NCBI GenBank assembly: GCA_947588675.1
Contig: CANPYY010000011.1
Span: 1,456-65,455 of the forward strand
Direction of reading: 5' to 3'
Length of the DNA stretch: 64,000 bases
From: an uncultured Lachnospiraceae bacterium
Lineage (GTDB): Bacteria > Bacillota > Clostridia > Lachnospirales > Lachnospiraceae
The notes below the pieces were generated by a model. It did no database searches and had not been told where the DNA came from. It was given only the letters and a program-made list of their open reading frames with translations. Numbering within the stretch: the stretch's first letter is position 1; the number at the start of each line of letters is the position of its first letter. A program made the translations under genes and the position numbers. This document shows positions 8,595-24,032 of this stretch, one piece after another.

Positions 8595-8697
8595 TAAAAG
8601 AACTAATAAATGCCTATGTGAATAAAATACTATGTATAACATTTTATGTTTCGGAAATACTTTAACTAGTTATTTCCGGAAATGGAGTGATAGTACA

Positions 8698-9045
8698 ATG
8701 TTAATTCGCAGAGGAGATATATATTATGCAGATCTCAGACCGGTTGTAGGTTCTGAACAGGGAGGAATAAGACCGGTTCTTATAATCCAGAATGATATGG
8801 GAAATAAGCATAGTCCGACTATTATATGTGCTGCGATAACTTCAAAGCTTAATAAGGCAAAACTGCCGACACATGTTGAACTTAATGCAGAGAGATATGG
8901 TATTGTTAAAGATTCTGTTATATTACTGGAACAGGTACGTACTATAGATAAGTCGAGATTGAGAGAGAGAGTATGCCATCTTGACTCAGAAGTGTTGCGA
9001 AGGATTGATAAGGCATTAAAAATCAGCCTGTCTATAGATACATAG
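8698..9045 (+). CDS. mazF: MazF/PemK-family endoribonuclease toxin (EndoA/NdoA homologue)
   Basis: ORF 8632-9045. ATG 8698 lies 10 nt after GGAG. The 115-aa product aligns end to end with B. subtilis EndoA ([48 protein letters not shown]). Confidence 0.9.
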
Positions 9046-10150: not shown

Positions 10151-12442
10151 CTATAATATTTTAGATAATTTTGCAAAAGATGCCTTCATTTTTCTGATAC
10201 CGATATTGTCAAAGTTTATTGTGAGGTCATAGTCGCCGTTATTTGGTTCTACATCAGTTATTGTTCCGTCACCGAATTTAATATGCGTTACCCTTTCGTT
10301 TACGGTATAGGTTTCTGAACTTTTTTTCATACCTTTATTTATATAAGGGTTATTTGAAAATAAATTGGAGCCGGCAGGTCTTTTTGTAAATGTAAATGAA
10401 TCTTCCGAAAGGCGTTTTTTTGAGGAAGGCATCAAAGACTGTGAAAATGTATCCGATGCTGACTGTGTTATAAGGTACCGTGGAATTTCATTTATGAATC
10501 TCGAAGGATTGTTAAACATTGTATTGCCGTTTTTCATGCGTCTGGCAGAACTGCTTAATGTAAGTGTTTTCATTGCTCTTGTTATACCCACGTAACAAAG
10601 CCGTCTTTCTTCTTCAAGTTCTGAATCGTCAAGAGAGTAAAGAGCCATTTCAGATGGAAAAACATTTTCCTCCATTCCTGAAATAAAGACATGCGGAAAT
10701 TCAAGACCTTTGGCGCTGTGAAGCGTCATAAGAAGAACCACGTTACTGTCTTCGGATATAGTGTCGGCGTCTGCAACAAGCGCTACATTTTCAAGAAACA
10801 GGCTGAGTGCAGAGGAAGTATTGGAGTTTTCATCATGATTTTCATCAGATGTATTATTTAAGTCAAAGGTAACGGCTTTAGTAATAAATTCTTCAATATT
10901 TTCTATACGTGCGTTTGCTTCGGGTGTTTCTTCATTCATTAGTATATCAATATATCCGGTATCAGAAATAATATCCCGTACAAGGGATTCAATATCTGTT
11001 TTATTATCTTTTATACGGTTGCGGTAATGTTCAATAAGAGATACAAACTCCTGTATTTTGCCAATGCTTCTTCCTATTCCGTCAATATACTGCAAATCTT
11101 TCAAGGCGTCATAAAAGCTTATTGAGTGGACGTTGGCATAATGCATTATTCTGTCGATTGTCGTAAGGCCTATACCTCTTTTGGGAATATTAATTATGCG
11201 CCTTACAGCTATGTCATCAAGACCGTTATCGATGGTTTTAAGATATGCAAGGATATCTTTTATTTCTTTTCTGGAATAAAAGTTAATTCCACCGACAATT
11301 TTATATGGTATGTTTAAATTTACAAGGCTTTCTTCAAATATACGCGATTGTGCGTTGGTTCTGTACAAAATAGCATAGTCCCTGTAGTTTTTTCCCTCGT
11401 CTATGCCGTCTTTAATAGCATGTGTAATACCCAGCGCTTCTTCAAAGTCGCTCATATACCGGACATATTTTACAGGCATTCCTTCTTCGCTTTGACACCA
11501 GAGTTTTTTTGGTTTCCGCATTTTGTTGTGCGCTATGACTTCGTTTGCCGCAGCAAGTATATTTTTGGTTGAACGGTAATTTTGCTCAAGTTTTATAACT
11601 GTTGTATCGGGAAATGCCTTTTCAAAGTTTAATATATTATATATATTGGCACCGCGAAACTTATATATGGACTGATCATCATCGCCGACGACACATATAT
11701 TATTTTCAATTTCACCGTATTCATTTTCGGTAGGCGTAAGAAGTTTTAAAAGTTCAAACTGCGCTGAATTGGTATCCTGGTATTCGTCTACAAGTATGTA
11801 TCTGAAACGTTTTCTGTAATATTTAAGAGCGTTTTCATCCGTCTTAAAAAGTTCAACGGTTTTCATTATGAGGTCGTCAAAGTCAAACGCATTATTGGCG
11901 AGAAGTTTTTTCTGGTATTCGCTGTATAAGACGGCGTATTTTTCGTTTCTGAAATCGCCTTCAACTTCTTTTTTATACATATCCGGTGTTATAAGAGAAT
12001 TTTTATTTGCGGATATTATTGATAACACCTTTTTTTCGTTAAATGATTTTGAATCAAGGTTCATGGATTTAATGATACTTTTCATAAGCGCTCTGGAATC
12101 GTCGGTATCATATATTGAAAAGTTGCGTTCATAACCTAAGGATTCGCAAAAACGCCTTAGTATACGTACACATGAGGAATGAAATGTGCTTACCCATATG
12201 TTTTCAGCGCCGTAGCCTGCTATAGCGTCTATACGCTCACGCATTTCATTAGCGGCTTTATTTGTAAACGTCAGCGCAATGATGTTCCATGGACTGACAT
12301 TGCATTCCGTAATAAGATGGGCGATTCTGTATGTGAGAACCCTTGTCTTACCTGAGCCTGCTCCGGCAAGTATAAGAAGCGGGCCTTTATTGTGTTTTAC
12401 AGCTTTTGTCTGTTCTTCATTAAGATTTTCAAATATATCCAT
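10151..12442 (-). CDS. pcrA: ATP-dependent DNA helicase PcrA (UvrD/Rep superfamily 1)
   Basis: ORF 10151-12520. ATG 12442 lies 6 nt after GGAGG. Motif I AGAGSGKT, DEYQDT, and the C-terminal Tudor-like tail typical of PcrA. Confidence 0.93.
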   Translation of the reverse strand: MDIFENLNEEQTKAVKHNKGPLLILAGAGSGKTRVLTYRIAHLITECNVSPWNIIALTFTNKAANEMRERIDAIAGYGAENIWVSTFHSSCVRILRRFCESLGYERNFSIYDTDDSRALMKSIIKSMNLDSKSFNEKKVLSIISANKNSLITPDMYKKEVEGDFRNEKYAVLYSEYQKKLLANNAFDFDDLIMKTVELFKTDENALKYYRKRFRYILVDEYQDTNSAQFELLKLLTPTENEYGEIENNICVVGDDDQSIYKFRGANIYNILNFEKAFPDTTVIKLEQNYRSTKNILAAANEVIAHNKMRKPKKLWCQSEEGMPVKYVRYMSDFEEALGITHAIKDGIDEGKNYRDYAILYRTNAQSRIFEESLVNLNIPYKIVGGINFYSRKEIKDILAYLKTIDNGLDDIAVRRIINIPKRGIGLTTIDRIMHYANVHSISFYDALKDLQYIDGIGRSIGKIQEFVSLIEHYRNRIKDNKTDIESLVRDIISDTGYIDILMNEETPEANARIENIEEFITKAVTFDLNNTSDENHDENSNTSSALSLFLENVALVADADTISEDSNVVLLMTLHSAKGLEFPHVFISGMEENVFPSEMALYSLDDSELEEERRLCYVGITRAMKTLTLSSSARRMKNGNTMFNNPSRFINEIPRYLITQSASDTFSQSLMPSSKKRLSEDSFTFTKRPAGSNLFSNNPYINKGMKKSSETYTVNERVTHIKFGDGTITDVEPNNGDYDLTINFDNIGIRKMKASFAKLSKIL

Positions 12443-12568
12443 AGCAACCTCCAAACATATGTTTACCTTATCATATAAGAGAAGGCTTGTCAAAGGAAAA
12501 AGCAAAATTTGTTGTAACAATGATTATTATGTTTTATAATATAGATACTTTGGACAGGAGTGATATTA

Positions 12569-12988
12569 ATGTATACGTATATTCATAAAGTACAGTATTA
12601 TGAAACTGATAAAATGCAGCTTACGCATCATTCAAATTATGTAAGATTTATGGAAGAAGCAAGAATAGGGTTTCTTGAGAAGTGCGGTTACGGTTACGCT
12701 GATTTTGAAGAAAAAGGAGTTATTTCGCCGGTTGTAAGCGTTTCATGTAAATTTAAGAAAAGTACGACGTTTCCTGATGATATAAGTATCAGGGTATATG
12801 TTAAATCAGTTACCCCGGTAAGATTTTTGCTTGCTTATGAAATGTATACGGAAGGAGAGATAGTATGTACTGCATCAAGCGAGCATTGCTTTATCAGGAA
12901 AGAAGGAGGCATAATAAATATAAAAAAGGAGTATCCGGGGTTCTTTGATATACTTAATGATGAAATGAAAAAGTATAATGAAAAATAA
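12569..12988 (+). CDS. Acyl-CoA thioesterase, 4HBT/YbgC family
   Basis: About 139 aa. Hotdog-fold signature VQYYETDKMQLTHHSNYVRFMEEAR. ATG 12569 lies 8 nt after AGGAG. Confidence 0.8.
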   Translation: MYTYIHKVQYYETDKMQLTHHSNYVRFMEEARIGFLEKCGYGYADFEEKGVISPVVSVSCKFKKSTTFPDDISIRVYVKSVTPVRFLLAYEMYTEGEIVCTASSEHCFIRKEGGIINIKKEYPGFFDILNDEMKKYNEK

Positions 12989-12996
12989 AAAATTCA

Positions 12997-13039
12997 GTAA
13001 AACAAAAAAAGTGTTGACAAAACGCTTTTTTTGTTTTAC
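12997..13039. terminator. Long A/T-rich hairpin after the thioesterase gene
   Basis: 19-bp stem GTAAAACAAAAAAAGTGTT / AACGCTTTTTTTGTTTTAC (one G-U pair), loop GACAA. Symmetric A/T runs suggest a bidirectional terminator. Confidence 0.6.
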
Positions 13040-13219
13040 GATAGTAATACATTAATAAGAGTGCACAAAATTAATGTAATCATTTTGGAGTAATAATCTG
13101 CAGGCAGAAGTCGACTGTATGCCTGTCATGTTATCTGTTGCATTAGCAACTCGGGTTTATCGATATTTCAATTATTTCATTTGACAATATCTGTAAGATG
13201 TATTTGGGGGTATATTTAT

Positions 13220-14347
13220 ATGAGTGAACACATGGAACCTGAGCATATGCTCGATGAACTTCTTAATTATCTGATTCATGTCGAACGGCAGACTCTTTTA
13301 ATGGTACAAAGGGGTGTAAAGACAAGGGAATCACTTGTAAAGGTGGCGGATAATTATCTAAAAAAACGTGAAGTGCCGGAAAACATGCGAGAAAAGATAC
13401 TTAACCACTTCACTAAGTTTATATGGGGATATTATGTACTGGAGGAGGCTATTAACGATCCTGATATTTCCGACATTAAAGTGCTTAGTGAAAATAATGT
13501 AAGGATTAAACGTAAAGGTAAGAGAATGAGTACGGACATAAGTTTTCCAAGCAAGGCAGATTACAGGAGATTTGTGTCGATGGTTGCGGTAAAGAATAAA
13601 ACCAACCTTGCTGATATAAATGCGATTCAGTCTTTTACTGACAGGCACAGTAATGATAATTTTATTCTCAGGTTTAATATTGCTACTGATTTTGTTAATT
13701 CAGCCGATGTACCTTATATGCATATAAGAAAGCTTCCAAAGAAAAAATATTCTATAAAAAATCTTATGGAGTTTGGTATGCTGACTGAGGAAATGTCAGA
13801 TTATCTTATTGACGCGGCAAAAAATTCGGGAGGAATACTGTTTACCGGAAAAGGTGCAAGCGGTAAAACGACCCTTATGAACGTAATGCTTGAATATATT
13901 CCGCATGAATACAGCGGGCTTATTATTCAGGAGAATGAAGAGCTGTTCAGCAATACGCATCCTGATCTTATGTTTCAGCATATTGTTGAGAATAATGGAG
14001 AGGGAAAAATAAAGTATGACCTGAAAGATTTGGGAAGGAACGGACTGCTTACGGATCTGGATTATTTTATCATAGGGGAAATTAAAGGAGGTGAAGCATT
14101 ATATTTTCTTAATGCCGTATATACCGGTCACAGGTGTTGGGCTTCGGTTCATGGTATGAGCAGTACGGAAGCAATAGATAAACTTGCTGATTATGTAAAG
14201 TATGAAAGCGATTATTCCATAAATGATATAAGGCGTATGCTTGCGGGTATAAAAACTATAGTTTATCTTCAGAATTTTAAAATTAAGGAAATATCAGAAA
14301 CGAGAGGATTTACAGGTGGTGATATAATGTATGAGAGAATATTCTGA
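13220..14347 (+). CDS. tadA: Tad/Flp-type pilus assembly ATPase (CpaF/TadA family)
   Basis: ORF 13181-14347. Walker A GKGASGKT, Asp box LIIQENEEL, Walker B DYFIIGEIKGGEA, His box WASVHG. ATG 13220 lies 9 nt after GGGGG. Confidence 0.85.
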   Translation: MSEHMEPEHMLDELLNYLIHVERQTLLMVQRGVKTRESLVKVADNYLKKREVPENMREKILNHFTKFIWGYYVLEEAINDPDISDIKVLSENNVRIKRKGKRMSTDISFPSKADYRRFVSMVAVKNKTNLADINAIQSFTDRHSNDNFILRFNIATDFVNSADVPYMHIRKLPKKKYSIKNLMEFGMLTEEMSDYLIDAAKNSGGILFTGKGASGKTTLMNVMLEYIPHEYSGLIIQENEELFSNTHPDLMFQHIVENNGEGKIKYDLKDLGRNGLLTDLDYFIIGEIKGGEALYFLNAVYTGHRCWASVHGMSSTEAIDKLADYVKYESDYSINDIRRMLAGIKTIVYLQNFKIKEISETRGFTGGDIMYERIF

Positions 14348-15209
14348 TACCGGTAGTAATTTTTTTGTTAGATGGCTTGATAACAGGTATCGTAAGAGAA
14401 TTGAAAAGGAAAGAAACTTACAGGTGACTGTCGGAAACAGGGAAAGAAAATCCTTTTTATACAGGCTTGACAGGGTTCTTGATTACAGCGGGTTAAGAAA
14501 CAGAATCGGAAATATAAGCGCAGAAGCATATATAGCGTTTATAATGGCGGTAGTAATTATTACGGGAATGGCAGTAATTGCATTTACAGGTAACGTATTT
14601 CTTGCAATATCTATAACATTTATTGTTATCTCAATTTCTGCGGTTGTTTTATACATTCTTTCAGGAGTGTATTACAGCCGTCTTGAGAAAGAAATTATGA
14701 CTTTTTTAAATCTTGTTGAAAATTTCAGTAAAACGGAAAACGATATTGTTCAGATTTTTAAAAAGACGATTCATTATATGGAAGAACCGCTAAGAAAAAT
14801 TATGGAAGAATTTTGCAGTGAAGCAGAAAGTATGGGGGATTCCGGACCTGCTTTTGAGAACATGATTATAAAAGTTGAACACGCAAAATGCAGGGAGCTT
14901 TTCAGAAATTTAAGCGTATGTTCAAAATATGAGGCTAATTATGACGAGGTTGCCTGTGACTGTCGTACGAGTATGCTGGATTATTTATCGGTAAAGGCGG
15001 AAAGAAAGGCAATAATAGCAAACGGACGTGCAGAAATTATTATACTTCTTATCAGCGCCGCATTTATAGTACTTCTGTTTTCGAGAATAACTGAAAATCT
15101 ATTCGGGATTCTTACCGGTACTATGGTGGGAAATATTATTTTGCTTTATTGCTCGATAGTAATAATGATATGCCTGACAGTAATGGTTATATTTGATAAG
15201 AGGAGTTGA
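14331..15209 (+). CDS. tadB: TadB-like inner-membrane platform protein (T2SS-F domain family)
   Basis: 292 aa. TM pair, then a cytoplasmic helical domain, then a C-terminal TM pair. Overlaps the ATPase gene by 17 nt. Confidence 0.65.
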   Translation: MREYSDTGSNFFVRWLDNRYRKRIEKERNLQVTVGNRERKSFLYRLDRVLDYSGLRNRIGNISAEAYIAFIMAVVIITGMAVIAFTGNVFLAISITFIVISISAVVLYILSGVYYSRLEKEIMTFLNLVENFSKTENDIVQIFKKTIHYMEEPLRKIMEEFCSEAESMGDSGPAFENMIIKVEHAKCRELFRNLSVCSKYEANYDEVACDCRTSMLDYLSVKAERKAIIANGRAEIIILLISAAFIVLLFSRITENLFGILTGTMVGNIILLYCSIVIMICLTVMVIFDKRS

Positions 15210-15877
15210 GCGGGATAATAGAAAAAATTGATGATTTTTTAATAAGACACGGAATACAGTTTATGTTCTCATGGATGAATCCGTTTAGGTTTTTAGCGGT
15301 TATGTTAATTTCGGCGTTAATTTGCGCCATAGCAGGGTGCGGGATAAATATTTTTTTAACACCGGTGTTTTGTATAGCAGGATTTTTTATCCCTGTCATT
15401 CTGGCTGTTATTTCAAACAGGGCAGATAATGATGCAATGATGTCAGATATTGAGAGTATGTACGATGTTATCAGAATACAGGCGAGAGCAGGCGTATTTA
15501 TACAGGACTCTCTTATGGATTGTTATATGCTTTGTACAAACAGACGGCTGAAGGCTGCGCTGCTTGAACTGTGTAACAGAATAAGCACGAGAAGTACGCT
15601 AAAGGAAGCTGTAGATGATTTTAACAAACGTTTTACAAATATGCACATAGATATATTGTGTGTGATACTTAACCAGGCGCAGACAAGCGGAAAGACGGTG
15701 CAGATTTTGTCTGATATGAGTGAACAGATAAGGCAGGTAAGACATACTCATGCAATGAAAGAAAAAGGAAAACTGGAAAGAAAAATTGAAATTCTTGAAC
15801 TGCTAATATTTATTGGCGTTCTGGCAATAGGGATATATTCTATGGGAACTGAAATTACAGTTATGTTGAATCAATAA
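15206..15877 (+). CDS. tadC: TadC-like inner-membrane platform protein (T2SS-F domain family)
   Basis: 223 aa with the same TM/helical/TM layout. The TTG start overlaps the upstream stop by 4 nt. The exact start is uncertain. Confidence 0.6.
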   Translation: MSGIIEKIDDFLIRHGIQFMFSWMNPFRFLAVMLISALICAIAGCGINIFLTPVFCIAGFFIPVILAVISNRADNDAMMSDIESMYDVIRIQARAGVFIQDSLMDCYMLCTNRRLKAALLELCNRISTRSTLKEAVDDFNKRFTNMHIDILCVILNQAQTSGKTVQILSDMSEQIRQVRHTHAMKEKGKLERKIEILELLIFIGVLAIGIYSMGTEITVMLNQ

Positions 15878-15903
15878 AAAGTTTAAAAGAAAGGAAGATA
15901 ATT

Positions 15904-16122
15904 ATGATAAAAAACACAGTAACACATTTTATGGAAAAGGTAAACAAAGTAATACATGACGGAAGAAAAAAACGCGGCGGGAAAGAAATAATAATGGAAT
16001 TTGCAATTGGAGCAATAGCTATTGTGCTTGCGCTTGTATTCCGGGAACAGCTGGAAACAGTTATAAAGACTGTGGGAGGTTCATTTACCGAGAAAATAAC
16101 TTCGCTGTTTTCAAGGCTGTGA
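15904..16122 (+). CDS. flp: Flp-like type IVc prepilin candidate
   Basis: 72 aa. Basic leader ending RKKRGG, then KEIIMEFAIGAIAIVLALVF (Gly, then a hydrophobic helix with an E-F pair). RBS AAAGGAAG. Located after the tadC-like gene. Confidence 0.55.
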   Translation: MIKNTVTHFMEKVNKVIHDGRKKRGGKEIIMEFAIGAIAIVLALVFREQLETVIKTVGGSFTEKITSLFSRL

Positions 16123-16129
16123 TGCTGTT

Positions 16130-16543
16130 ATGAGTAGTAAGAAAAAAAAGAAAGGCAGCATTTTGAAAATGCTGCCGGTACTACTCGGAATTGCCGCAGT
16201 ATCAGTACTTTCAATAATGTATATAACATATATGGATGTTATGGATAAAAGAGAAATGGCATTTCAGATTTCAAGGGAATATCTTTTGCGTATGGAAACG
16301 GAAGGATACCTTACTGATGAAGCAGCGGAAAAAATGATATCAGAGCTGGAGGAGATAGGCGCAACTAATATTAATCTGGCAGGTACTACGTTTTCCCAGG
16401 TTGAATATGGAGATAAAATAATACTTAACATAGAAGCCCGTATACCTATGGACGAAATAGTGCTTACAAATTTGTTTAATATAGATTCACGGAAAATTTA
16501 TCAGAAACTGTATATAAATAAAAGCACTACTGCAAAAAATTAG
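16130..16543 (+). CDS. Minor pilin / pseudopilin candidate (DUF4320-like)
   Basis: 137 aa. Leader KKKKKG followed by the hydrophobic helix SILKMLPVLLGIAAVSVLSIMYI. Lies 7 nt after the flp-like gene. Confidence 0.45.
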   Translation: MSSKKKKKGSILKMLPVLLGIAAVSVLSIMYITYMDVMDKREMAFQISREYLLRMETEGYLTDEAAEKMISELEEIGATNINLAGTTFSQVEYGDKIILNIEARIPMDEIVLTNLFNIDSRKIYQKLYINKSTTAKN

Positions 16544-16552
16544 GGAGGCGTA

Positions 16553-17098
16553 ATGTTGAAAAATAAAAAAGGAAATGTTGAATACCTGAGTGCGTTTATG
16601 CTCATATGTCTTGTGGGACTTTTACTGGCCTATAGTTTTTCGGTAAAGGAAATCAGGCAATATGAGGATTATGCAAAAGATGGGCTTGACAGCGCCTGTT
16701 TGTCTGCCGCGCTTATAGATTTGGAAAGATACGCATATGGCAGATTTATTGTGATAAAGCAGGAAAATTCGTGGCCGGTTTTTAAAAATTGCCTGAAAAA
16801 CAATATGAAGCTGGATGAAGATTTAAATCCCAATGATAAAAGTATATACGGGAAAGTAACAGTGCATGAGTTTATTGTTTATAACATTATTGAAGGTTTT
16901 TTGGTAAGTTATCATGTTACCGGAGATGGAAATACATATTATGAAAGCAAGACCTATTCTAAGGACGATATGACGCCTGACGGTTCAAAAATAATATCTG
17001 CTACGATATATGCTGATATAGGTATGAATGTGAAGAGTTTTCTTGGAATAGAAAAGTATGTTCATATAAAAACCTCAGTTGATGTTGTGGATAATTGA
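16553..17098 (+). CDS. Minor pilin candidate (TadE-like N-terminus)
   Basis: 181 aa. Leader MLKNKKG followed by NVEYLSAFMLICLVGLLLAY. RBS AGGGAGG. Confidence 0.4.
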   Translation: MLKNKKGNVEYLSAFMLICLVGLLLAYSFSVKEIRQYEDYAKDGLDSACLSAALIDLERYAYGRFIVIKQENSWPVFKNCLKNNMKLDEDLNPNDKSIYGKVTVHEFIVYNIIEGFLVSYHVTGDGNTYYESKTYSKDDMTPDGSKIISATIYADIGMNVKSFLGIEKYVHIKTSVDVVDN

Positions 17099-17166
17099 TG
17101 ACTCAGGCTATGTTCACTGTGGTGAACGCTAAAAATTACTACTGTAATAACGGAAGGTGAAGATAT

Positions 17167-17796
17167 ATGAAAAGAAAAAAAGGTGTAATGAAATATATAA
17201 TTGCAGCAATAATTATTGTGGTATTTATAGTAACAGCCGCACTAATTGGTAAAAAAGATAATACTGTTTCCGTAATGGCTGCAGCTTCAGATATAAGCAT
17301 GGGGACTATTATAACGGAAGAAAATGTTGATATTCTGGCAGTTGTAAAAAATATAGCAGAACAGGATATTGAAGATAATATGTTAAAAGATAAAGCGGAA
17401 CTTATCGGGAAAACCGTAAGTTGCAATATGGCGGCGGACAGTATATTTACATCAGATGTAATGGGAGAGGAAGCAAATAACAGGGCGGCTATGATAAATC
17501 CTGTAGTGGCGGGAGTAAGGGCGTCAGATATATCGCAGTTTTCCGGAGGCATTATAAGGGCCGGAGATTATATAGATATATCTGTTGTAGACAGCAATAC
17601 GGGAAAATGCAGTAATGTTATAAGTAATGTATATGTAACGGAAGCTTTTAATTCCGACGGTACGGCTATAGAGGATAATGGTTGTGCGATGATACTGAAT
17701 GTGCTTATTGAAAAAGAAAGTGAGCAATACCTGAATGAAATGCTGGCAACGGGAAGTATAAGGGTATGCAGACTGGAAAGGAGTACGGATGGGTAA
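17167..17796 (+). CDS. cpaB: CpaB/RcpC-like pilus assembly protein with SAF domain
   Basis: 209 aa. N-terminal TM anchor, then a SAF-like segment (VMAAASDISMGTIITEENV) and a CpaB-type C-terminal domain. Confidence 0.6.
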   Translation: MKRKKGVMKYIIAAIIIVVFIVTAALIGKKDNTVSVMAAASDISMGTIITEENVDILAVVKNIAEQDIEDNMLKDKAELIGKTVSCNMAADSIFTSDVMGEEANNRAAMINPVVAGVRASDISQFSGGIIRAGDYIDISVVDSNTGKCSNVISNVYVTEAFNSDGTAIEDNGCAMILNVLIEKESEQYLNEMLATGSIRVCRLERSTDG

Positions 17797-20785
17797 AAAG
17801 ATAATTTTCTTATTTTCGGTATGGGTTATTCTGCTGTTTCCTGTAAAACATGCGGATGCATCAGTATATGATAACGCGTATACATATTATGGAAAATATG
17901 GTTCGGAAAGTAAAAGTCCCGCAAGGCTTAATGAAAATGACGGTTATATATATTTTTGCTCGAAAGGGCTTACTGCATCTACGTCTACCCAATATAGAAC
18001 CGTGGGATATACGATAACCCTTACCGCAGGAAATAAAAAAGATTCCGTAGAGGTAAAACTTGGCGGAAGTTATGTAAAAGAAGTGTCGCAGGTAAAAAAA
18101 GACGGTTATACATATGTGCTTAGAAGGGCAAAGCTGAGTCTGCTGCAGACGTTATTTAACGGAAACAGTGCAATAACGTGGAATCAGATATATTGTAATA
18201 AAAATACATACAAATTTGATGCAATAATGACAGTGGTTGAGAATGGGAAACAGTTATGCGGTACTGTAAATGAAAGCAGCAATTACCGAACAATAAGCGC
18301 TGATACCAACAGTTATCTGTTTAGAAACGCATCGGGGATAAAAAAAGCCAGAAAATGGACCAATCCCTCTGACCTCAATAGTTTTTTTGATAAATCTGTA
18401 GTGTTTGAGCCTGTAAGTTATATAAAAACCAGAGATGCCTATGCGGAGGGTGAAAGCGGCAATGTTTTTTATGATAACGGCATGTATTATGTAAGGCAAA
18501 ATTCAGTAGTAAGGCTTTCTTTTGAGTCATATTTTGAAGATGCCGATGCTGCAAATCCGAAATTTCATCCAAATTATAATATGTACAATGTGACGGGATG
18601 GGGCGATAATCAGAAATATTATACAATGCAGAAGAATGCTAACGGAGAATGCTCAGGTATTATTAAAGACGGTACGGGAACGGAAAAACCTTTAGGTATT
18701 GTAAATACGGTAACTGCTGTTACTACAGGTTACAACGACTGTAAATATGCTTTCAGGAGTATGGCGCGGTTTAATTTTTATACGCCCGACGGAGGGGTTA
18801 CATATGTAAATACCGAAGGAAGGGTTTACTATGATTATTTATATCCGGGCAATCTTAGTATCAATGATAATCTGTGTGACAAAAGTTCGGACCATAATAA
18901 TACGATTAGCCTTATATCCGATGCAAAGGCGCCGGAAATATATCTGCCTAAGTATGTATCGGTAATTGCCGATTACTATATTCCGGTAACTGCATCTGAC
19001 GGCGGTTCGGGTATAAGAAGCCTTGCATTGTACAGAAGTGACGGACAGCTTATAAGACAGGTAAATTACAGCGGAAGAAATACTACTGTGTCATCTTATA
19101 GTGATTTCAGGGTTATTAATGATAACTATAAATATTTTATCAGGGCTGTCGACAATGTCGGCAATGTATATGATTCGGATTATGTAGTTTTCAGTAAACC
19201 GGTAGCGCATACGATAGACGCCTATATTGCAGGAGGAGTAAACGGTTATAACAGTTCTGTTATAACGGCAAATGTGTACGGCGGCAATTCAGAAATAGCG
19301 GAGCTTATAATCATGTCTGATTATGAGAAAAATCCGACGGAAGACAGAATAGTTTTTGTAAATCAAAGCGTTGTAAACCATACTCTGGCTTCGGGAAAGT
19401 ATATGTACAGATATGATGTAAATCCTATGTATATGTTAACCGGAAAGCCTGACGGAATATATAATATTGAAGTTATATCCGGCGGGAAATATGTTGGTTC
19501 AGATCCTGCAGTGCTGGTGCTGAAAAAAGATAAAACATCGCCTTTAATAGATATAAGATCTTATTTTAGCGAAGAAAAATGGAATAGATATGATTTGTCG
19601 CTAAAGTTTGATGTGAGCGATAATTTCAGCGGAGTAAACAGGGTGTGGGCAATATCGGGTAACGGAGAATTAAAAGGAAAACTTACAAATACGGCGCAGG
19701 GAGTATCTGCGCAGTATACGATAAACACTGAGGGTGAAAACAGTATTTATCTTAATGCCTCTGATATGGCAGGAAATGTAAAAACGAGAAAAATAAAATA
19801 TCTGATTGACAGGACGCCTCCAAAATGTATGCTGTCGGGGACGTTTACCGGTCTTGATTCTTCCAATGATGTATGGCTTAACAAAGATAAAATGAAAGGC
19901 GAAATATATGTCAGCGATGAATTAAGCGGGATGAGTGAAAAACAGTCGAAATATATTTTATATGACCGCGGAAGCGGAAGTACAAGAGAAGTGGAATTTA
20001 ATAATTTATTCGATTTGAACCTGAAAAATAAAAATACTGCAATACTGTCTTTTTCCGATAAGTTTATTGATACTATGGTAAGTTCAAAACGCAGTTATAT
20101 GGTTGAGGCTGAGGATGTTGCCGGGAACCTGAAAACAGTAAGGCTGTATCTTAATATTGATTTTGATGTCCCTGAAGCTGATTATGACTGCAGTAATCCG
20201 TGGAATGAAAAAACATATAGGGGGAATGTACATATTACTGACGAGCATTCAGGTGTAGCATCTGTAGAGGTATATGTTGATGATGAGTGTAAAAAGTCTG
20301 TATATGATATTAATAAAAATGAGTATATATTAAATCTTTCCATGGAGGAGTATGAAGAAAGTAAGCCTGACATTACTATAAAAATAACTGATGTGGCAGG
20401 AAATGTTTATGATTATCCGCTTATAAAGGGAGAAAAGATAAAACTAAGCGCATCAGTTTCAAGAATTGACAATAAGGAGCAGCCGGTATTTAACGCAGGC
20501 GAAAATGCTAGTTTAACAATTGAATATTCAGGCGATGCGGATACCATAAAAGTATTTTTCCCGGAGGAACTTTTAAAATATAATCCGGAGCTTAACAGGG
20601 AATATGATGTGTCAGACAGAAAGTGGATAAAGATAATAACCGGTTTTATTATACCTTTAAAGACTGACAACGGACATTATAAAGTGAAAGTCGCAGCGTA
20701 TAAGGGAGATAAAGAATATGCGGTGTATCCTCCCTTTGAGGTATACGGCTGTATTACAAGCCGGTTTAGGACAAGGATAAGGTAA
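17789..20785 (+). CDS. Large secreted Ig-repeat protein, candidate pilus-associated adhesin
   Basis: 998 aa. Signal peptide (IIFLFSVWVILLFPVKHADA). Four modules bracketed by D-x-x-SG and D-x-(A/V)-GN motifs. No LPXTG motif and no C-terminal TM. Start overlaps the cpaB-like stop by 8 nt. Confidence 0.7.
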   Translation: MGKKIIFLFSVWVILLFPVKHADASVYDNAYTYYGKYGSESKSPARLNENDGYIYFCSKGLTASTSTQYRTVGYTITLTAGNKKDSVEVKLGGSYVKEVSQVKKDGYTYVLRRAKLSLLQTLFNGNSAITWNQIYCNKNTYKFDAIMTVVENGKQLCGTVNESSNYRTISADTNSYLFRNASGIKKARKWTNPSDLNSFFDKSVVFEPVSYIKTRDAYAEGESGNVFYDNGMYYVRQNSVVRLSFESYFEDADAANPKFHPNYNMYNVTGWGDNQKYYTMQKNANGECSGIIKDGTGTEKPLGIVNTVTAVTTGYNDCKYAFRSMARFNFYTPDGGVTYVNTEGRVYYDYLYPGNLSINDNLCDKSSDHNNTISLISDAKAPEIYLPKYVSVIADYYIPVTASDGGSGIRSLALYRSDGQLIRQVNYSGRNTTVSSYSDFRVINDNYKYFIRAVDNVGNVYDSDYVVFSKPVAHTIDAYIAGGVNGYNSSVITANVYGGNSEIAELIIMSDYEKNPTEDRIVFVNQSVVNHTLASGKYMYRYDVNPMYMLTGKPDGIYNIEVISGGKYVGSDPAVLVLKKDKTSPLIDIRSYFSEEKWNRYDLSLKFDVSDNFSGVNRVWAISGNGELKGKLTNTAQGVSAQYTINTEGENSIYLNASDMAGNVKTRKIKYLIDRTPPKCMLSGTFTGLDSSNDVWLNKDKMKGEIYVSDELSGMSEKQSKYILYDRGSGSTREVEFNNLFDLNLKNKNTAILSFSDKFIDTMVSSKRSYMVEAEDVAGNLKTVRLYLNIDFDVPEADYDCSNPWNEKTYRGNVHITDEHSGVASVEVYVDDECKKSVYDINKNEYILNLSMEEYEESKPDITIKITDVAGNVYDYPLIKGEKIKLSASVSRIDNKEQPVFNAGENASLTIEYSGDADTIKVFFPEELLKYNPELNREYDVSDRKWIKIITGFIIPLKTDNGHYKVKVAAYKGDKEYAVYPPFEVYGCITSRFRTRIR
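18995..20404 (+). repeat. Four tandem Ig-like (OmpL47/chitobiase-C-like) protein modules inside the 998-aa ORF
   Basis: SDGGSG 18995-19012 with DNVGN 19151-19165. SDNFSG 19616-19633 with DMAGN 19763-19777. SDELSG 19913-19930 with DVAGN 20114-20128. TDEHSG 20237-20254 with DVAGN 20390-20404. Confidence 0.6.
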
Positions 20786-20866
20786 TATTTTATGGGGATT
20801 TTATTTAATATTGCTATGACATGCAGGATACTTCATAAAAAAGACCATACCATATGGAGATGCCAT

Positions 20867-21436
20867 ATGGTATGGTATCTGGGTATATGCACGGCGCTTT
20901 ATATGTCGGCAGGAATATATTTTTTGTGTCTTGGTGATATTTACAGTTTTTTACGTATTTATTATTTATCATGGCTTATGGTAATGGCATATGTGGATTA
21001 TCGTACCGGATATGTATATAATTGTATGGAATATACGGTTATTTTTCCATTGCTTCTTTGTCTTGTTTGTATATATAATACTAAAGATTGCAGTATGTAT
21101 GCGGCGGTTTTCGGAGTGGCAGAAGTTATATATGCAGTAGTTATACAGATTTTTACCCATATGGGGTGCATGGGTGAAGGGGACCGGGATATACTTATAG
21201 TTAATTCGGTAATTATGAGTACGGGAATAATAAATAATATTAATGAAATACATACACAGGTTTATATTGTTATGGAATGTATAGCGGATAATATGGTGTT
21301 TTCAATGCTTGCTTCTGGATTGTTTGTAATAAGAAATATACGGTACATAAAGCTTAAAAAGCTGAGGCTGAAAAAAAGCAGGCCGTTTCTTCCAAGCATA
21401 TATATGGCTGCGGTTATAATGTTTTTTATAAAATAG
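20867..21436 (+). CDS. A24-family prepilin peptidase (TadV/CpaA-like)
   Basis: ORF 20792-21436. ATG 20867 lies 7 nt after GGAG. Polytopic membrane protein with the two aspartate contexts AYVDYRTGYV and GEGDRD (compare GxGD). Confidence 0.6.
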   Translation: MVWYLGICTALYMSAGIYFLCLGDIYSFLRIYYLSWLMVMAYVDYRTGYVYNCMEYTVIFPLLLCLVCIYNTKDCSMYAAVFGVAEVIYAVVIQIFTHMGCMGEGDRDILIVNSVIMSTGIINNINEIHTQVYIVMECIADNMVFSMLASGLFVIRNIRYIKLKKLRLKKSRPFLPSIYMAAVIMFFIK

Positions 21437-21497
21437 GTTTTACTTTTATCCCGATATAATGTATATTATTGAATAATATTAAAAGGATGGTTATCAG

Positions 21498-24032
21498 ATG
21501 ACAAGAGAAGAATTTGCCGGATTAATTAATAAGGGTATAGTAATACTTGACGGGGCAACAGGTTCCATGCTGCAAAAAAGCGGTATGAATCCGGGAAAGT
21601 GTCCAGAAACATGGATTATTGAGCATAAGGATATAATGATTAATCTTCAGAAGGAATATATTAAGGCCGGAAGTGATATTGTATATGCCCCTACGTTTAC
21701 GGGAAACAGAATAAAGCTTGATGAATACGGACTTGCAGATGAAATAGAGAAAATAAACAGGGAGCTTGTACGGATATCTAAGAGGGCGGTAAAGGAAGCC
21801 CTGGAGGAACTTGCCTCCTGTGGTATTACAGACAGGCGCTGCTATGTTGCGGGAGATATTACAATGACCGGGCAGCAGTTATATCCTGTCGGAACGCTTC
21901 CGTTTGAAGAACTTGTAGATATATATAAGGAACAGCTTGGTTATATGTATAAAGAAGGCATAGACCTTGTTGTTATAGAAACAATGATGAGTCTGCAGGA
22001 GTGCCGGGCAGCTCTGCTTGCCGTAAAAGAAACTTCAGCTCTCCCGGTAATGGTTACTCTTTCTTTTGAGGAGGATGGCAGGACCTTGTTTGGAACTGAC
22101 CCGGTTACGGCAGTTACGGTACTGCAATCCATGGGAGCTGACGCCGTTGGTGCTAATTGTTCATCAGGTCCGGACAGGATGGTTCCTGTAATAGAAAAAA
22201 TGATGTCTGTTGCAAAAATTCCTGTTATAGCAAAACCAAATTGTGGAATACCGGTGCTAAAAGACGGTAAAACGACATATTCAAATACTCCCGGGGAATT
22301 TGCAAAAGAGGCTGAAAAACTTATAAAACAGGGCGTTTCCATAATAGGAGGCTGCTGCGGAACTGATCCGGAGTGTATTATGCTTATTAAAAGAGCGGCG
22401 GTAGAAATGGATACTGAAGAGAGAAAGGAATATGTAAAAAAACTGCAATATGACGCCGGAAAGAAAAAAATTCTTTCAGGTGAAAGAAAATCGATTGACA
22501 TTGCCGCAGGAGAGAAATTTTTGGTTATAGGTGAAAGAATTAATCCTACAGGAAAAAAGAATCTGCAGGCAGCGCTTAAAGAGGATAATATCGCGCCTGT
22601 AATAACGATGGCTGAAGAACAGGCGGAATATGGAGCAGATATACTTGACGTCAACGTGGGTATGAATGGAATTGATGAAAAGGAAATTATGGTTAAGGTT
22701 GTAAGTGAACTTTCCGGAGCCGTGAACCTGCCGTTATGTATAGATACAAGCTCGCCGGAAGTAATGGAGGCGGCGCTTAGGATTTACCCCGGCAGGGCGT
22801 TAATGAATTCAATAAGCCTTGACCCTGCAAGAATGGATAAACTTCTTAAAATTGCAAAAAAGTATGGCGCAATGTTTATACTCCTTCCGCTGTCAGAGGC
22901 CGGACTTCCAAAGGATATAGATGAAAAGAAAAATATAATTAATACAATCGTTTCCGGAGCGCATGAGTATGGTATTAGTAATGACTGCATAATAACGGAC
23001 GGGTTGGTTGCGACTGTTGGGGCAAATAAAAATGCAGCCCTTGAAACATTGGAAACAATAAGATACTGCAAAGATGAACTTAGGCTTGAAACAGTATGCG
23101 GATTGTCAAATATTTCTTTTGGACTTCCTGAGAGGTCGTATGTTAATTCAGCATTTATGGCGATTGCAATAAATGCCGGTCTTACGATGGCCATTGCAAA
23201 TCCAATGCAGGAACTTTTGATGAATAGTATGTATGCTGCGGACATGCTTATGGCGAAAAATGATTCTGATGCCAGGTATGTGGAGCGTATAACGGTATTT
23301 AATGAGGAGCACAGAAAAGAAACCGTAACAGTTAAAAATAATGATGATAATAAACAAAAAAAGACGGATTATTCTTATTGCGGTGATGAAGCGCCGGTAT
23401 GTGACGGGAAAATCTATGATGCAGTATTAAAAGGAAGAAAAGAAAATATAATTTCGCATGTAAAAGATGCACTTTCAGGAAAATTAAAACCGGAAATAAT
23501 TATTAACGAGGCGCTTATTCCTGCGATAAATAAAGTTGGCGAGCTGTATGGGGAAGGACGGTATTTTCTGCCGCAGCTTATGAAAAGCGCAGAAACCATG
23601 AAGGCGGCAATAGATTATCTGGAACCGCTGTTAGATGATAAAAGTAAAGGAGATACAAAAGGCGTAATAGTGATAGCAACAGTAAAAGGGGATATACATG
23701 ATATAGGTAAAAACCTTGTTGCAATTATGCTGAAAAATTATGGATATACGGTTTATGACCTTGGAAAAAATGTGGAGGCAGATGAGATAATAGATGCTGC
23801 GAGACGGTATAATGCAGATATAATCGGACTGTCCGCATTGATGACGACGACAATGATGGAAATGAAAAATGTAGTTGATTTAGCAAAGCGTAGTGGTATA
23901 AAAGCAAAAATAATGATAGGCGGCGCGGTGGTAACGGAAGATTTTGCAATAGAAATTGGCGCCGATGGATATTCTGCGGATGCCGGTGAAGCCGTGACCG
24001 TTGCAAACAGGCTTGTTAATGACGGTAAATAG
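21498..24032 (+). CDS. metH: Cobalamin-dependent methionine synthase, short form without the AdoMet reactivation domain
   Basis: 844 aa. Hcy-binding domain (GGCCGT), pterin-binding barrel, B12 cap and Rossmann domain with DIHDIGKN (DxHxxG) and SALMTTT. The protein ends right after the B12 domain. Confidence 0.9.
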   Translation: MTREEFAGLINKGIVILDGATGSMLQKSGMNPGKCPETWIIEHKDIMINLQKEYIKAGSDIVYAPTFTGNRIKLDEYGLADEIEKINRELVRISKRAVKEALEELASCGITDRRCYVAGDITMTGQQLYPVGTLPFEELVDIYKEQLGYMYKEGIDLVVIETMMSLQECRAALLAVKETSALPVMVTLSFEEDGRTLFGTDPVTAVTVLQSMGADAVGANCSSGPDRMVPVIEKMMSVAKIPVIAKPNCGIPVLKDGKTTYSNTPGEFAKEAEKLIKQGVSIIGGCCGTDPECIMLIKRAAVEMDTEERKEYVKKLQYDAGKKKILSGERKSIDIAAGEKFLVIGERINPTGKKNLQAALKEDNIAPVITMAEEQAEYGADILDVNVGMNGIDEKEIMVKVVSELSGAVNLPLCIDTSSPEVMEAALRIYPGRALMNSISLDPARMDKLLKIAKKYGAMFILLPLSEAGLPKDIDEKKNIINTIVSGAHEYGISNDCIITDGLVATVGANKNAALETLETIRYCKDELRLETVCGLSNISFGLPERSYVNSAFMAIAINAGLTMAIANPMQELLMNSMYAADMLMAKNDSDARYVERITVFNEEHRKETVTVKNNDDNKQKKTDYSYCGDEAPVCDGKIYDAVLKGRKENIISHVKDALSGKLKPEIIINEALIPAINKVGELYGEGRYFLPQLMKSAETMKAAIDYLEPLLDDKSKGDTKGVIVIATVKGDIHDIGKNLVAIMLKNYGYTVYDLGKNVEADEIIDAARRYNADIIGLSALMTTTMMEMKNVVDLAKRSGIKAKIMIGGAVVTEDFAIEIGADGYSADAGEAVTVANRLVNDGK

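Follow-up and report, generated by a model that had tools for sequence, protein, structure and literature searches.

The stretch of DNA considered here, 64,000 nucleotides (nt) of contig CANPYY010000011.1 from an uncultured Lachnospiraceae bacterium and called the window throughout, carries at positions 13220–21436 nine plus-strand open reading frames (ORFs), confirmed in the ORF list of the window, which, as far as can be told from genes alone, very probably encode a filament machine of the Tad type in a monoderm member of the Lachnospiraceae. Inside this operon, between the genes of an RcpC/CpaB-like protein and of a prepilin peptidase, lies the gene of a large exported protein (gene 8), which occupies a slot that recurs in related loci and is filled by proteins with a variable body and a conserved end. 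From gene 1 to gene 9 the junctions measure −17, −4, +26, +7, +9, +68, −8 and +6 nt, which bears out to the nucleotide the first-pass annotation of nine co-directional genes with overlaps or gaps of at most 68 nt, and purine-rich Shine-Dalgarno-like sequences are found before most of the nine starts. The proteins of the window were scanned with the Pfam and NCBIfam models, and weak assignments were re-examined on 31 orthologues per gene.

Gene 1 (13220–14347; 375 amino acids (aa) from the ATG chosen in the first-pass annotation) encodes a FlaI/CpaF-type ATPase. The Pfam T2SSE model matched it with 67 bits, above the cutoff, while the NCBIfam models for FlaI (96.7 bits), the TadA family (87 bits), ComGA (54.6 bits) and GspE (24 bits) all remained below their equivalog cutoffs. 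Comparison with sequences of the PDB gave 70.8 bits for FlaI, 68.4 bits for Caulobacter CpaF, 36 bits for VirB11 and 31 bits for PilT. The Walker A motif (GKGASGKTT), the Asp box (ENEE), the Walker B motif (DYFIIGE) and the His box (H304/H311) all fall in invariant columns of the family alignment, and a tetracysteine motif is absent. The protein thereby belongs to the FlaI/CpaF (archaeal-type/Tad) superclade, within which it is equidistant, by the PDB bit scores, from archaeal FlaI and Caulobacter CpaF, and it may fall inside or outside the CpaF/TadA clade.

The platform is encoded by two genes, a TadB-like one (gene 2, 14331–15209; 292 aa) and a TadC-like one (gene 3, 15206–15877; 223 aa), which adjoin with a 4-nt overlap and contribute one T2SSF domain each, as in a split platform. 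For gene 3 the domain is recognized directly (32.6 bits, above the 25.2 cutoff). For gene 2 the protein of the window gave only E = 0.066 with the same model, which matched 20 of the 31 orthologues (best E = 1.2e-6), and its place after the ATPase gene is conserved across the loci. Pairwise similarity between the gene 2 and gene 3 products was not detectable, so that they are old paralogues at most.

The nearest relatives of the gene 1 ATPase outside cassettes of this kind are orphan T2SSE-family ATPases of 620–650 aa, with a long N-terminal extension and without platform, pilin or peptidase genes nearby. Their identity to the cassette ATPase is 52–54% in three loci (L029–L031), 46% in a fourth (L054) and 41% on plasmid pCY360 of Butyrivibrio proteoclasticus. 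One of them (L031:9212–11164) lies between groEL, a DUF6106 gene and the gene for IMPDH, and that of pCY360 (L087:11269–13131) lies beside a ParM/StbA gene. These five sequences were considered as cassettes and rejected, being orphan long ATPase paralogues only.

Three small genes follow the platform genes. Gene 4 (15904–16122; 72 aa) encodes a Flp-like prepilin that lacks a globular domain; its basic leader and a conserved Gly are followed by a hydrophobic helix (EIIMEFAIGAIAIVLALVF) and then by a short amphipathic tail. The Flp1_like model gave 22.6 bits, below its 33.5 cutoff, and is present in the precomputed annotation of the 72-aa orthologue in locus L003. The family motif is G[GI][KD][EG]I[IL][MV][ET], in which the canonical register of Glu at +5 and Tyr at +6 is absent; ‘Flp-like’ pilins without Tyr at +6 have already been described in Gram-positive bacteria (Imam 2011, PMC3244431). 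Gene 5 (16130–16543; 137 aa) encodes a DUF4320-type pilin-like protein whose basic leader, conserved G9-S and hydrophobic helix, with no Glu near the site, are followed by a core in which R49, L53, E56 and G59 are invariant and by the residues STAKN, conserved at the very C-terminus. The protein of the window has no match of its own in Pfam or NCBIfam, and DUF4320 was found in 11 of the 31 orthologues (best E = 1.4e-5). The product of gene 6 (16553–17098; 181 aa) is a second, putative pilin-like protein, so described from its conserved K-x-x-x-G-x-x-E-[YW] N-terminus and the hydrophobic helix after it, to which an extracellular domain of about 140 aa is joined; its leader is basic, like those of genes 4 and 5. 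It falls in no catalogued family: no Pfam family was found at the family level, a single orthologue among the 31 matching weakly the Pfam family ‘Tad’. No relative of either pilin-like protein was found when the gene 5 and gene 6 profiles were compared with the PDB sequences, and no TadE match was obtained with Pfam among their orthologues.

Gene 7 (17167–17796; 209 aa) encodes the RcpC/CpaB-like protein, in which an N-terminal hydrophobic membrane anchor, seen in the sequence itself, precedes a SAF domain and a domain of the RcpC type. SAF was matched with 27.7 bits, above the cutoff, and the CpaB model TIGR03177 with 28 bits against a cutoff of 71; in the orthologues, SAF was recognized in 24 of 31 and RcpC in 11 of 31 (best E = 3.4e-8). 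By sequence, the sole match in the PDB was a weak one to the SAF domain of FlgA, the RcpC structure 9GZR not being reached. RcpC is known as a membrane-anchored dodecameric conduit around the Tad fibre, which binds the secretin in diderms (PMC12307814).

The operon ends with gene 9 (20792–21436; 214 aa), for a TadV-type A24 prepilin peptidase. The Peptidase_A24 model gave 23.6 bits, just under its 26.5 cutoff, and matched 19 of the 31 orthologues (best E = 2.6e-8). In the alignment of the 31 orthologues, whose mean identity is 21%, D69 (codon 20996–20998), D131 (codon 21182–21184, in the GEGD version of the GxGD motif) and P201 are invariant, and a PFxP motif is also conserved. D69 and D131 are the predicted pair of catalytic aspartates of A24 peptidases. 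At 214 aa the protein has no room for a methyltransferase domain.

The gene 1 ATPase is not rare: it has 1,516 matches in a collection of 5.8 billion proteins, the named ones being ‘ATPase, T2SS/T4P/T4SS family’ or ‘Flp pilus assembly complex ATPase TadA’ from Lachnospiraceae, and a scan of one genome per GTDB species matched 244 genomes. From these, 80 loci were kept, almost all from Lachnospiraceae (Acetatifactor, Diplocloster, Anaerobium acetethylicum, and metagenome-assembled genomes (MAGs) of Roseburia and Eubacterium), and also from Clostridium acidisoli; the nearest relatives are rabbit-gut Lachnospiraceae MAGs with 93% and 90% ATPase identity. Synteny was evaluated with hidden Markov models (HMMs) over 84 loci. 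In 69 the order from gene 1 to gene 7 is kept, even where ATPase identity falls to 39%, the remaining loci being cut by contig ends or represented by the orphan ATPases. An independent assembly of the same species (L085, a 355-kb contig from the ENA) is 99.2% identical to the window at the nucleotide level and has all nine ORFs intact, with 60 nucleotide and 16 amino-acid differences over the nine genes. So few amino-acid changes among 60 nucleotide changes indicate that the genes are real and under purifying selection within the species, and the recurrence of the order in 69 of 84 loci together with the intact ORFs of L085 puts the operon far beyond chance. The cassette is found in different chromosomal neighbourhoods in different species and thus behaves as a unit.

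The first-pass annotation had named an ATPase with Walker A, Walker B, Asp and His boxes, two T2SS-F-type platform proteins, a 72-aa Flp-like prepilin, two more prepilin-like proteins, a SAF-domain CpaB-like protein and an A24 peptidase-like protein, and had seen in them and the large secreted protein a self-contained Tad/Flp-like filament machine of a Clostridia-type monoderm. All nine assignments stand, the profile searches proposed there as a check having supported the ATPase, the platform and the peptidase at the level of the protein or of its family, and the co-occurrence mapping, also proposed there, having returned the conserved gene order described above in loci that are almost all from Lachnospiraceae. 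Its further statement that TadZ/CpaE is missing also agrees with what was found: no ORF with the KGGxGK[ST] motif lies within 6 kb of the cassette in 69 loci, and no CbiA, ParA or AAA_31 match is present in the precomputed Pfam tables of six loci (L001–L004, L085 and L086), which cover the cassette and its flanks, the rest of the genome being outside their scope. No match to the Secretin family was obtained with Pfam or NCBIfam among the nine proteins, as is expected for a monoderm Tad system.

The sole exception seen with respect to TadZ is a divergent ParA-like gene (CbiA/AAA_31; L090:2024–2833, minus strand) directly upstream of the ATPase gene of one locus, which may be a TadZ-like accessory in some lineages. 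The same locus has an extra 268-aa SH3_3 protein (L090:8190–8996) encoded between the SAF gene and that for a slot protein of 1,674 aa.

The order tadA-tadB-tadC-flp-tadE-tadF, which we take to be that of the Bifidobacterium breve locus, is matched by the order ATPase, platform, platform, pilin and minor pilins of the cassette. With the monoderm Tad systems (e.g. B. breve UCC2003 and those catalogued by Imam 2011 and Denise 2019) the cassette also shares a single ATPase of the FlaI/CpaF type, a platform of two proteins with one domain each, a Flp-type pilin of very small size, a pair of pilin-like minor subunits, a short A24 peptidase of the TadV type and the lack of a secretin. A FlaI/CpaF-type ATPase with a split single-domain platform and a tiny pilin is the signature of Tad/Epd-type systems, the loss of secretin and TadD is expected in monoderm Tad loci, and Tad systems have been detected in Clostridia (Denise 2019, PMC6668835), among which a 2011 report found tad operons to be most widely distributed (Imam 2011, PMC3244431). 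The latter work also described homologues of rcpC in the tad loci of Gram-positive bacteria, among them a divergent group from Clostridia that has species-specific genes. There are also differences from the monoderm Tad systems. The machinery of B. breve consists of TadZ, TadA, TadB, TadC, Flp, TadE and TadF (PMC6916266), whereas the cassette has no TadZ/CpaE (M. luteus, for its part, has TadG instead); the peptidase and the RcpC-like protein are encoded within the cassette operon; the pilin motif departs from G/XXXXEY; the proteins are distant from the curated models, most of them scoring near or below the cutoffs; and a polymorphic Sec-exported protein with a conserved C-terminal module is encoded inside the operon.

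From the diderm Tad systems (flp-tadV-rcpCAB-tadZABCDEFG of Aggregatibacter actinomycetemcomitans, cpa of Caulobacter, and that of Pseudomonas aeruginosa) the cassette retains the common core of CpaF/TadA, TadB, TadC, Flp, TadE/F-type minor pilins, TadV and RcpC/CpaB, but lacks the RcpA secretin, RcpB, TadD, TadZ and the large minor pilin of the TadG/CpaL type. Since the secretin partner is absent, the role of the RcpC-like protein must here be different or reduced. The archaeal Epd-like, Aap and Ups pili resemble it in the equal score of the ATPase against FlaI, in the ATPase-platform start followed by small pilins and in having no outer-membrane component; they differ from it in that the cassette has a bacterial host, an RcpC/SAF protein, a Flp1-like pilin and, as in Tad, a platform split in two genes, with no archaeal accessory proteins. 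The first-pass annotation had considered the composition of the operon unusual. Three of the five differences it listed (no secretin or TadD, CpaB retained, ATPase first) are ordinary, being already known for monoderm Tad loci; the absence of TadZ is real for the cassette. It had also held the architecture to be uncharacterized. In the searchable literature, which leaves most subscription journals outside its scope and makes the negative a weak one, no experimental work on the cassette was found, nor any description of the TadZ-less Lachnospiraceae cassette as a defined and widespread unit, of the conserved slot or of the C-terminal domain and tail described below; the operon itself, however, is neither rare nor unannotated, its ATPase being already named TadA in the sources.

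Gene 8 (17789–20785; 998 aa) overlaps gene 7 by 8 nt and encodes a Sec-exported protein with a signal peptide at residues 1–24 (ADA|S), an N-terminal region conserved only within the sub-clade of the window, and immunoglobulin (Ig)-like repeats, among them a Big_13 match of 28 bits at residues 625–674. The first-pass annotation had read it as a secreted Ig-repeat protein. Large size, Sec-type export and the Big_13 repeat agree with that description, which was nevertheless an under-reading, since the protein belongs to a polymorphic family in a conserved slot, defined by a C-terminal domain and an RTR[IL]R tail. Of the 56 loci with both gene 7 and gene 9, 52 have exactly one large ORF (439–1573 aa) in between. 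Of the other four, two (L057 of C. acidisoli and L066 of a Roseburia MAG) have the gene for the C-terminal domain after the peptidase gene (L057:14357–16168; L066:10211–10531), and in two the sequence ends too early to judge the slot, about 1.7 kb past gene 9 in L053 and inside an ORF with gene 8-like Ig repeats in L052. In these four loci, where gene 9 directly follows gene 7, the tail was also sought in cis at genes 5 and 6 and was found in neither.

All 54 slot proteins examined begin with a basic and then hydrophobic N-terminus of the Sec-signal type (read by eye, with no predictor). Within the sub-clade of the window the full-length identity to gene 8 is 36–63%; beyond it, by both BLAST and HMM, similarity is limited to the last 110–140 residues or so. 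The bodies are built of Flg_new repeats, an ALK/LTK-type glycine-rich domain, GBS_Bsp-like repeats or Big_13, modules that, to judge from their sequence families, are typical of Firmicutes surface proteins and adhesins, and no enzyme domain was found in them with Pfam. The domain content differs completely between close relatives.

A side observation concerns the opposite end of the slot proteins. Many of those of the Acetatifactor type (e.g. L083:14379–16418; P0147, P0188 and P0268) have a mature N-terminus reading T-I-Y-N/D-S-P-Y-V-S-F-S-P-D-G, followed by a Cys-rich segment (CADCG ... CPxC), while those of the clade of the window have instead G-T/S-Y-D-N-A-Y-T-Y-Y directly after the signal-peptide cleavage site. 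The N-terminus may thus hold a second conserved module.

The C-terminal domain of gene 8 (20417–20767; approximately residues 877–993) is an uncatalogued one: no Pfam match was obtained in 44 members, and it is absent from the NCBIfam matches of gene 8. Its AlphaFold2 model is an Ig-like beta-sandwich with a core predicted local distance difference test (pLDDT) of 85–89, for which Foldseek returned only generic Ig-like matches (template modelling score about 0.4–0.55) and no functional clue. The model of full-length gene 8 was poor (mean pLDDT 51, predicted template modelling score 0.31, from an 8-row alignment) and was not interpreted. Word-indexed searches recovered little, one 147-aa fragment from the single sequence and 22 short contig-edge fragments from the profile. 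When 1.84 billion representatives were searched exhaustively with a profile, the domain turned up in 442 clusters, 149 of them at E ≤ 1e-30, and among the 150 matches listed it stands at the C-terminus or within a few residues of it, in proteins of up to 1,674 aa. As a test in the reverse direction, three proteins with the C-terminal domain were picked from that library, and all three sit in the same type of cassette, one whole and two with only the parts that the contig retains.

Beyond the sandwich, gene 8 ends with RTRIR (20768–20782; the last five residues), which is an instance of the most conserved element of the slot family, the tail [FL]RTR[IL]R, which either closes the protein or stops at most about six residues short of its end. 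Of the 7,723 ORFs of the loci, 55 have the motif among their final 12 residues; these are all slot proteins (55 of 55), and the motif is also present in 133 of 146 library representatives. Slot variants of 908 aa without the C-terminal sandwich retain the RTRIR end. In C. acidisoli the tail reads IRTRINNNNSK, from which it follows that the tail can do without its last Arg.

The codons of the tail directly precede the start of gene 9, often with ATGA overlaps. It was considered whether RTR[IL]R might be merely a by-product of the ribosome-binding site of gene 9, an explanation that proved insufficient, as the codons are mixed and the motif persists where it stands 3–6 codons before the stop or where the start of gene 9 is further downstream. 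The first and last Arg are encoded by both CGN and AGR and the Thr by all four codons, the middle Arg being mostly AGR; such mixed Arg and Thr codons point to selection on the peptide. A dual role of these codons, in the peptide and in the initiation of gene 9, is possible.

The slot proteins may be compared with PilC/PilY1 (and MshQ) of type IVa pili, which they resemble in having a Sec signal rather than a prepilin leader, a large size, a variable body with modules of the adhesin kind, conservation of the C-terminal part and, to an extreme degree, of the terminal peptide, and a gene beside minor-pilin genes. PilC/PilY1 is Sec-exported, with a variable N-terminal adhesin region and a conserved C-terminal part, the last 10 residues or so of which add a beta-strand that completes a PilK-type minor pilin's sheet, and license assembly (Ellison et al., PNAS 2026, PMC13533445), the equivalent strand being provided in cis by CpaL/TadG in Tad systems (PMC13533445). 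Because the slot proteins have all the sequence-level features of PilC/PilY1 except homology, and because the cassette is without a TadG/CpaL-like pilin, gene 8 is proposed to be a docked adhesin. The explanation that we favour for the whole locus, and consider on balance probable, is that of a complete TadZ-less Tad/Flp-type (type IVc) pilus machine with gene 8 as an adhesin docked through its C-terminal peptide. Taken separately, the proposal that gene 8 is a filament-attached adhesin docked by this peptide is put forward tentatively, on the basis of analogy and conservation.

With this explanation, the gene 9 peptidase would cut the basic leaders of the products of genes 4, 5 and 6 on the cytoplasmic side of the membrane, and the two pilin-like proteins 5 and 6 would prime the filament. 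The hexameric gene 1 ATPase, acting through the TadB/TadC-like platform of genes 2 and 3, would then polymerize the 72-aa pilin onto this primer, so that a filament would indeed be made, and the membrane-anchored gene 7 protein, as a presumed ring or conduit, would guide the fibre off the membrane and through the wall; with no secretin partner, a ring at the outer face of the membrane would be its simplest role. The functional payload would be gene 8, as a polymorphic adhesin attached to the filament, most likely to its tip complex, by means of its Ig-like domain and RTR[IL]R tail, and it is this docking, above all the other steps, that is conjectural. More specific, and somewhat more doubtful, is the suggestion that Lachnospiraceae Tad-type pili carry a trans-acting, exchangeable tip adhesin, a Sec-exported protein of nearly any architecture that a dedicated Ig-like module of about 110 residues and the RTR[IL]R peptide would bring to the filament. 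The peptide would dock with one of the pilin-like subunits, the DUF4320-type one or the second, or else with the RcpC-like ring, and might license filament initiation.

Several observations weigh against this explanation. As to the machine, the cassette has no TadZ, on which the Tad systems studied until now depend, and several proteins of the window score below the curated family cutoffs. The motifs of genes 4–6 depart from G/XXXXEY, with Glu at non-canonical positions. As to the docking, the slot C-terminal domain is an Ig-like sandwich, not the beta-propeller of PilY1, with which it has neither sequence nor fold homology, and the system is of type IVc rather than IVa. The tail lies outside the confident AlphaFold2 fold of the single chain, unstructured or as a short helix of low confidence and not as a strand, and its common form LDELRTRLR has, by eye, the periodicity of an amphipathic helix. 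Finally, the position of the tail codons at the start of gene 9 means that their conservation may partly serve translation initiation.

Among the alternatives, the least unlikely is a type II-secretion-like pseudopilus, a short piston whose task would be to push gene 8, as its cargo, across the thick wall or to release it, the C-terminal domain and tail being the recognition signal. There is indeed one large secreted protein per cassette, the part shared across genomes is a C-terminal module, as in sorting signals, and the type II secretion system and Tad belong to one superfamily (Denise 2019, PMC6668835). Hybrids of secretion and Tad systems are reportedly described among Tad-like systems in a preprint on the vaginal microbiome. 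However, it is Tad pili, not type II secretion, that are marked by Flp-type pilins devoid of a globular domain and by a platform divided into TadB and TadC, the bodies of the supposed cargo are adhesin-type repeats rather than enzymes or toxins, and a monoderm has no outer membrane that would need such a step, which makes a pseudopilus unlikely.

The position of gene 8, nearly always directly after the RcpC-like gene and often overlapping it, suggests another alternative, in which gene 8 would be a structural part of the envelope, a sheath or anchor across the wall that takes the place of the secretin/TadD layer and attaches to the RcpC-like ring by its C-terminal module, its body varying with the wall polymers. 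That RcpC of diderms binds the secretin (PMC12307814) is in keeping with it, as are the wall-biogenesis genes (GT2 and LCP) downstream of the operon in the window and the RgpF-type polysaccharide genes upstream of it in L001. Such a part is hard to reconcile with a size range of 439–1573 aa and with domains that differ between close relatives, unlike those of a stoichiometric ring; moreover, the gene follows the peptidase gene in two loci and the flanking genes differ between species, so that we regard this role as quite unlikely.

A DNA-uptake (competence) pilus instead of an adhesion organelle is brought to mind by Micrococcus luteus, whose Tad-type pili mediate transformation (PMC6916266), and by the pcrA helicase gene that adjoins the operon in this species, but the pcrA neighbourhood is not kept in other species, no comEA-, comEC- or dprA-like gene is present in the cassette or its 10-kb flanks, a polymorphic surface-repeat protein would have no obvious part in DNA uptake, and ComGA reached 54.6 bits against a cutoff of 300; a competence pilus is therefore very improbable, and a ComG pseudopilus was rejected outright, the platform being in two genes and the pilin Flp-like in addition to the low ComGA score. 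It is hardly credible that an apparatus for conjugative or mobile-element transfer, or a sporulation channel like SpoIIIA, has been mistaken for a pilus: gene 1 has sub-threshold matches to VirB11/TrbB models (77 against 250), its nearest non-cassette relatives are the orphan 620–650-aa ATPases, of which one is on Butyrivibrio plasmid pCY360 beside ParM, and one gene 2 orthologue weakly matches Spore_III_AB, but prepilin peptidase, Flp-like pilin and pilin-like proteins are all present, gene 1 has no Spore_III_AA or SpoIIIA family match in Pfam or NCBIfam, and the precomputed Pfam tables of L001–L004 and L085–L086 contain no relaxase, coupling-protein, VirB4 or integrase family in the 10-kb flanks, where the genes with a Pfam match are of the housekeeping or transport type. 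Both readings were rejected on these grounds. The first-pass annotation had stated that membership of a known competence or conjugation system would overturn it, and no competence, conjugation or SpoIIIA signature was found in the nine proteins and their flanks.

Lachnospiraceae are dominant commensals of gut and rumen, and Tad pili are colonization factors, essential for gut persistence in Bifidobacterium. To our knowledge, the surface organelles of Lachnospiraceae are almost unstudied. If the docked-adhesin explanation were true, the slot proteins would be the first PilY1-like tip adhesins acting in trans for type IVc pili, in a TadZ-independent minimal machine of eight genes, and their C-terminus would be a new ‘pilus-docking’ sorting signal in gut Firmicutes. 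If the tail docks on the tip complex, the rule of licensing by a C-terminal peptide, recently shown for type IVa pili, type II secretion and Caulobacter Tad, would extend to an in-trans form in type IVc. The cassette, with its eight core genes and neither TadZ nor secretin, would be a convenient minimal model of Tad fibre assembly, the conserved slot suggests a swapping of binding specificity while one machine stays in place, and the C-terminal domain with RTR[IL]R would serve as a sequence tag for finding the corresponding adhesins in metagenomes.

The flanks of the operon in the window are of the housekeeping kind. Upstream lie pcrA (minus strand) and a thioesterase gene, and downstream genes for a MetH-like methyltransferase, a GT2 glycosyltransferase and an LCP protein. 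The G+C content is flat over the region, at about 0.35–0.38, with no hint of an insertion in recent times. Within the 231-nt gap before gene 1, a sigma-70-like promoter candidate (13014–13042, plus strand; TTGACA-17-TACGAT) matches 10 of the 12 consensus positions, which is weak, as the regional total of such sites is not above that of shuffled sequence. Its −35 hexamer is bracketed by a 13-nt A/T-rich inverted repeat, AAAACAAAAAAAG ... CTTTTTTTGTTTT, with arms at 12999–13011 and 13025–13037, which might act as an operator or else weakly terminate the thioesterase gene. A riboswitch (e.g. for cyclic di-GMP) was sought in the 231-nt leader, and no Rfam family was found in 12400–21600.

Three further features of the window may be recorded. 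Upstream of pcrA, between the genes for alanine racemase and a SPOUT methyltransferase (rlmH-like), a gene for a 115-aa PemK/MazF-type toxin lies at about 8696–9043 (plus strand), a position obtained as an offset from L085:5477–5824. At 35045–36754 (plus strand) a single ORF of 569 aa joins FolB (dihydroneopterin aldolase), HPPK, prephenate dehydratase and an ACT domain, an unusual fusion of enzymes of folate and phenylalanine biosynthesis. Finally, an ORF of 991 aa with no Pfam match at E ≤ 1e-5 (42420–45395, plus strand) stands at the head of a plant-polysaccharide utilization cluster, whose members include GH43 (40483–42069, minus strand), DUF5696 (49452–52007) and GH3 (56537–58699) proteins.

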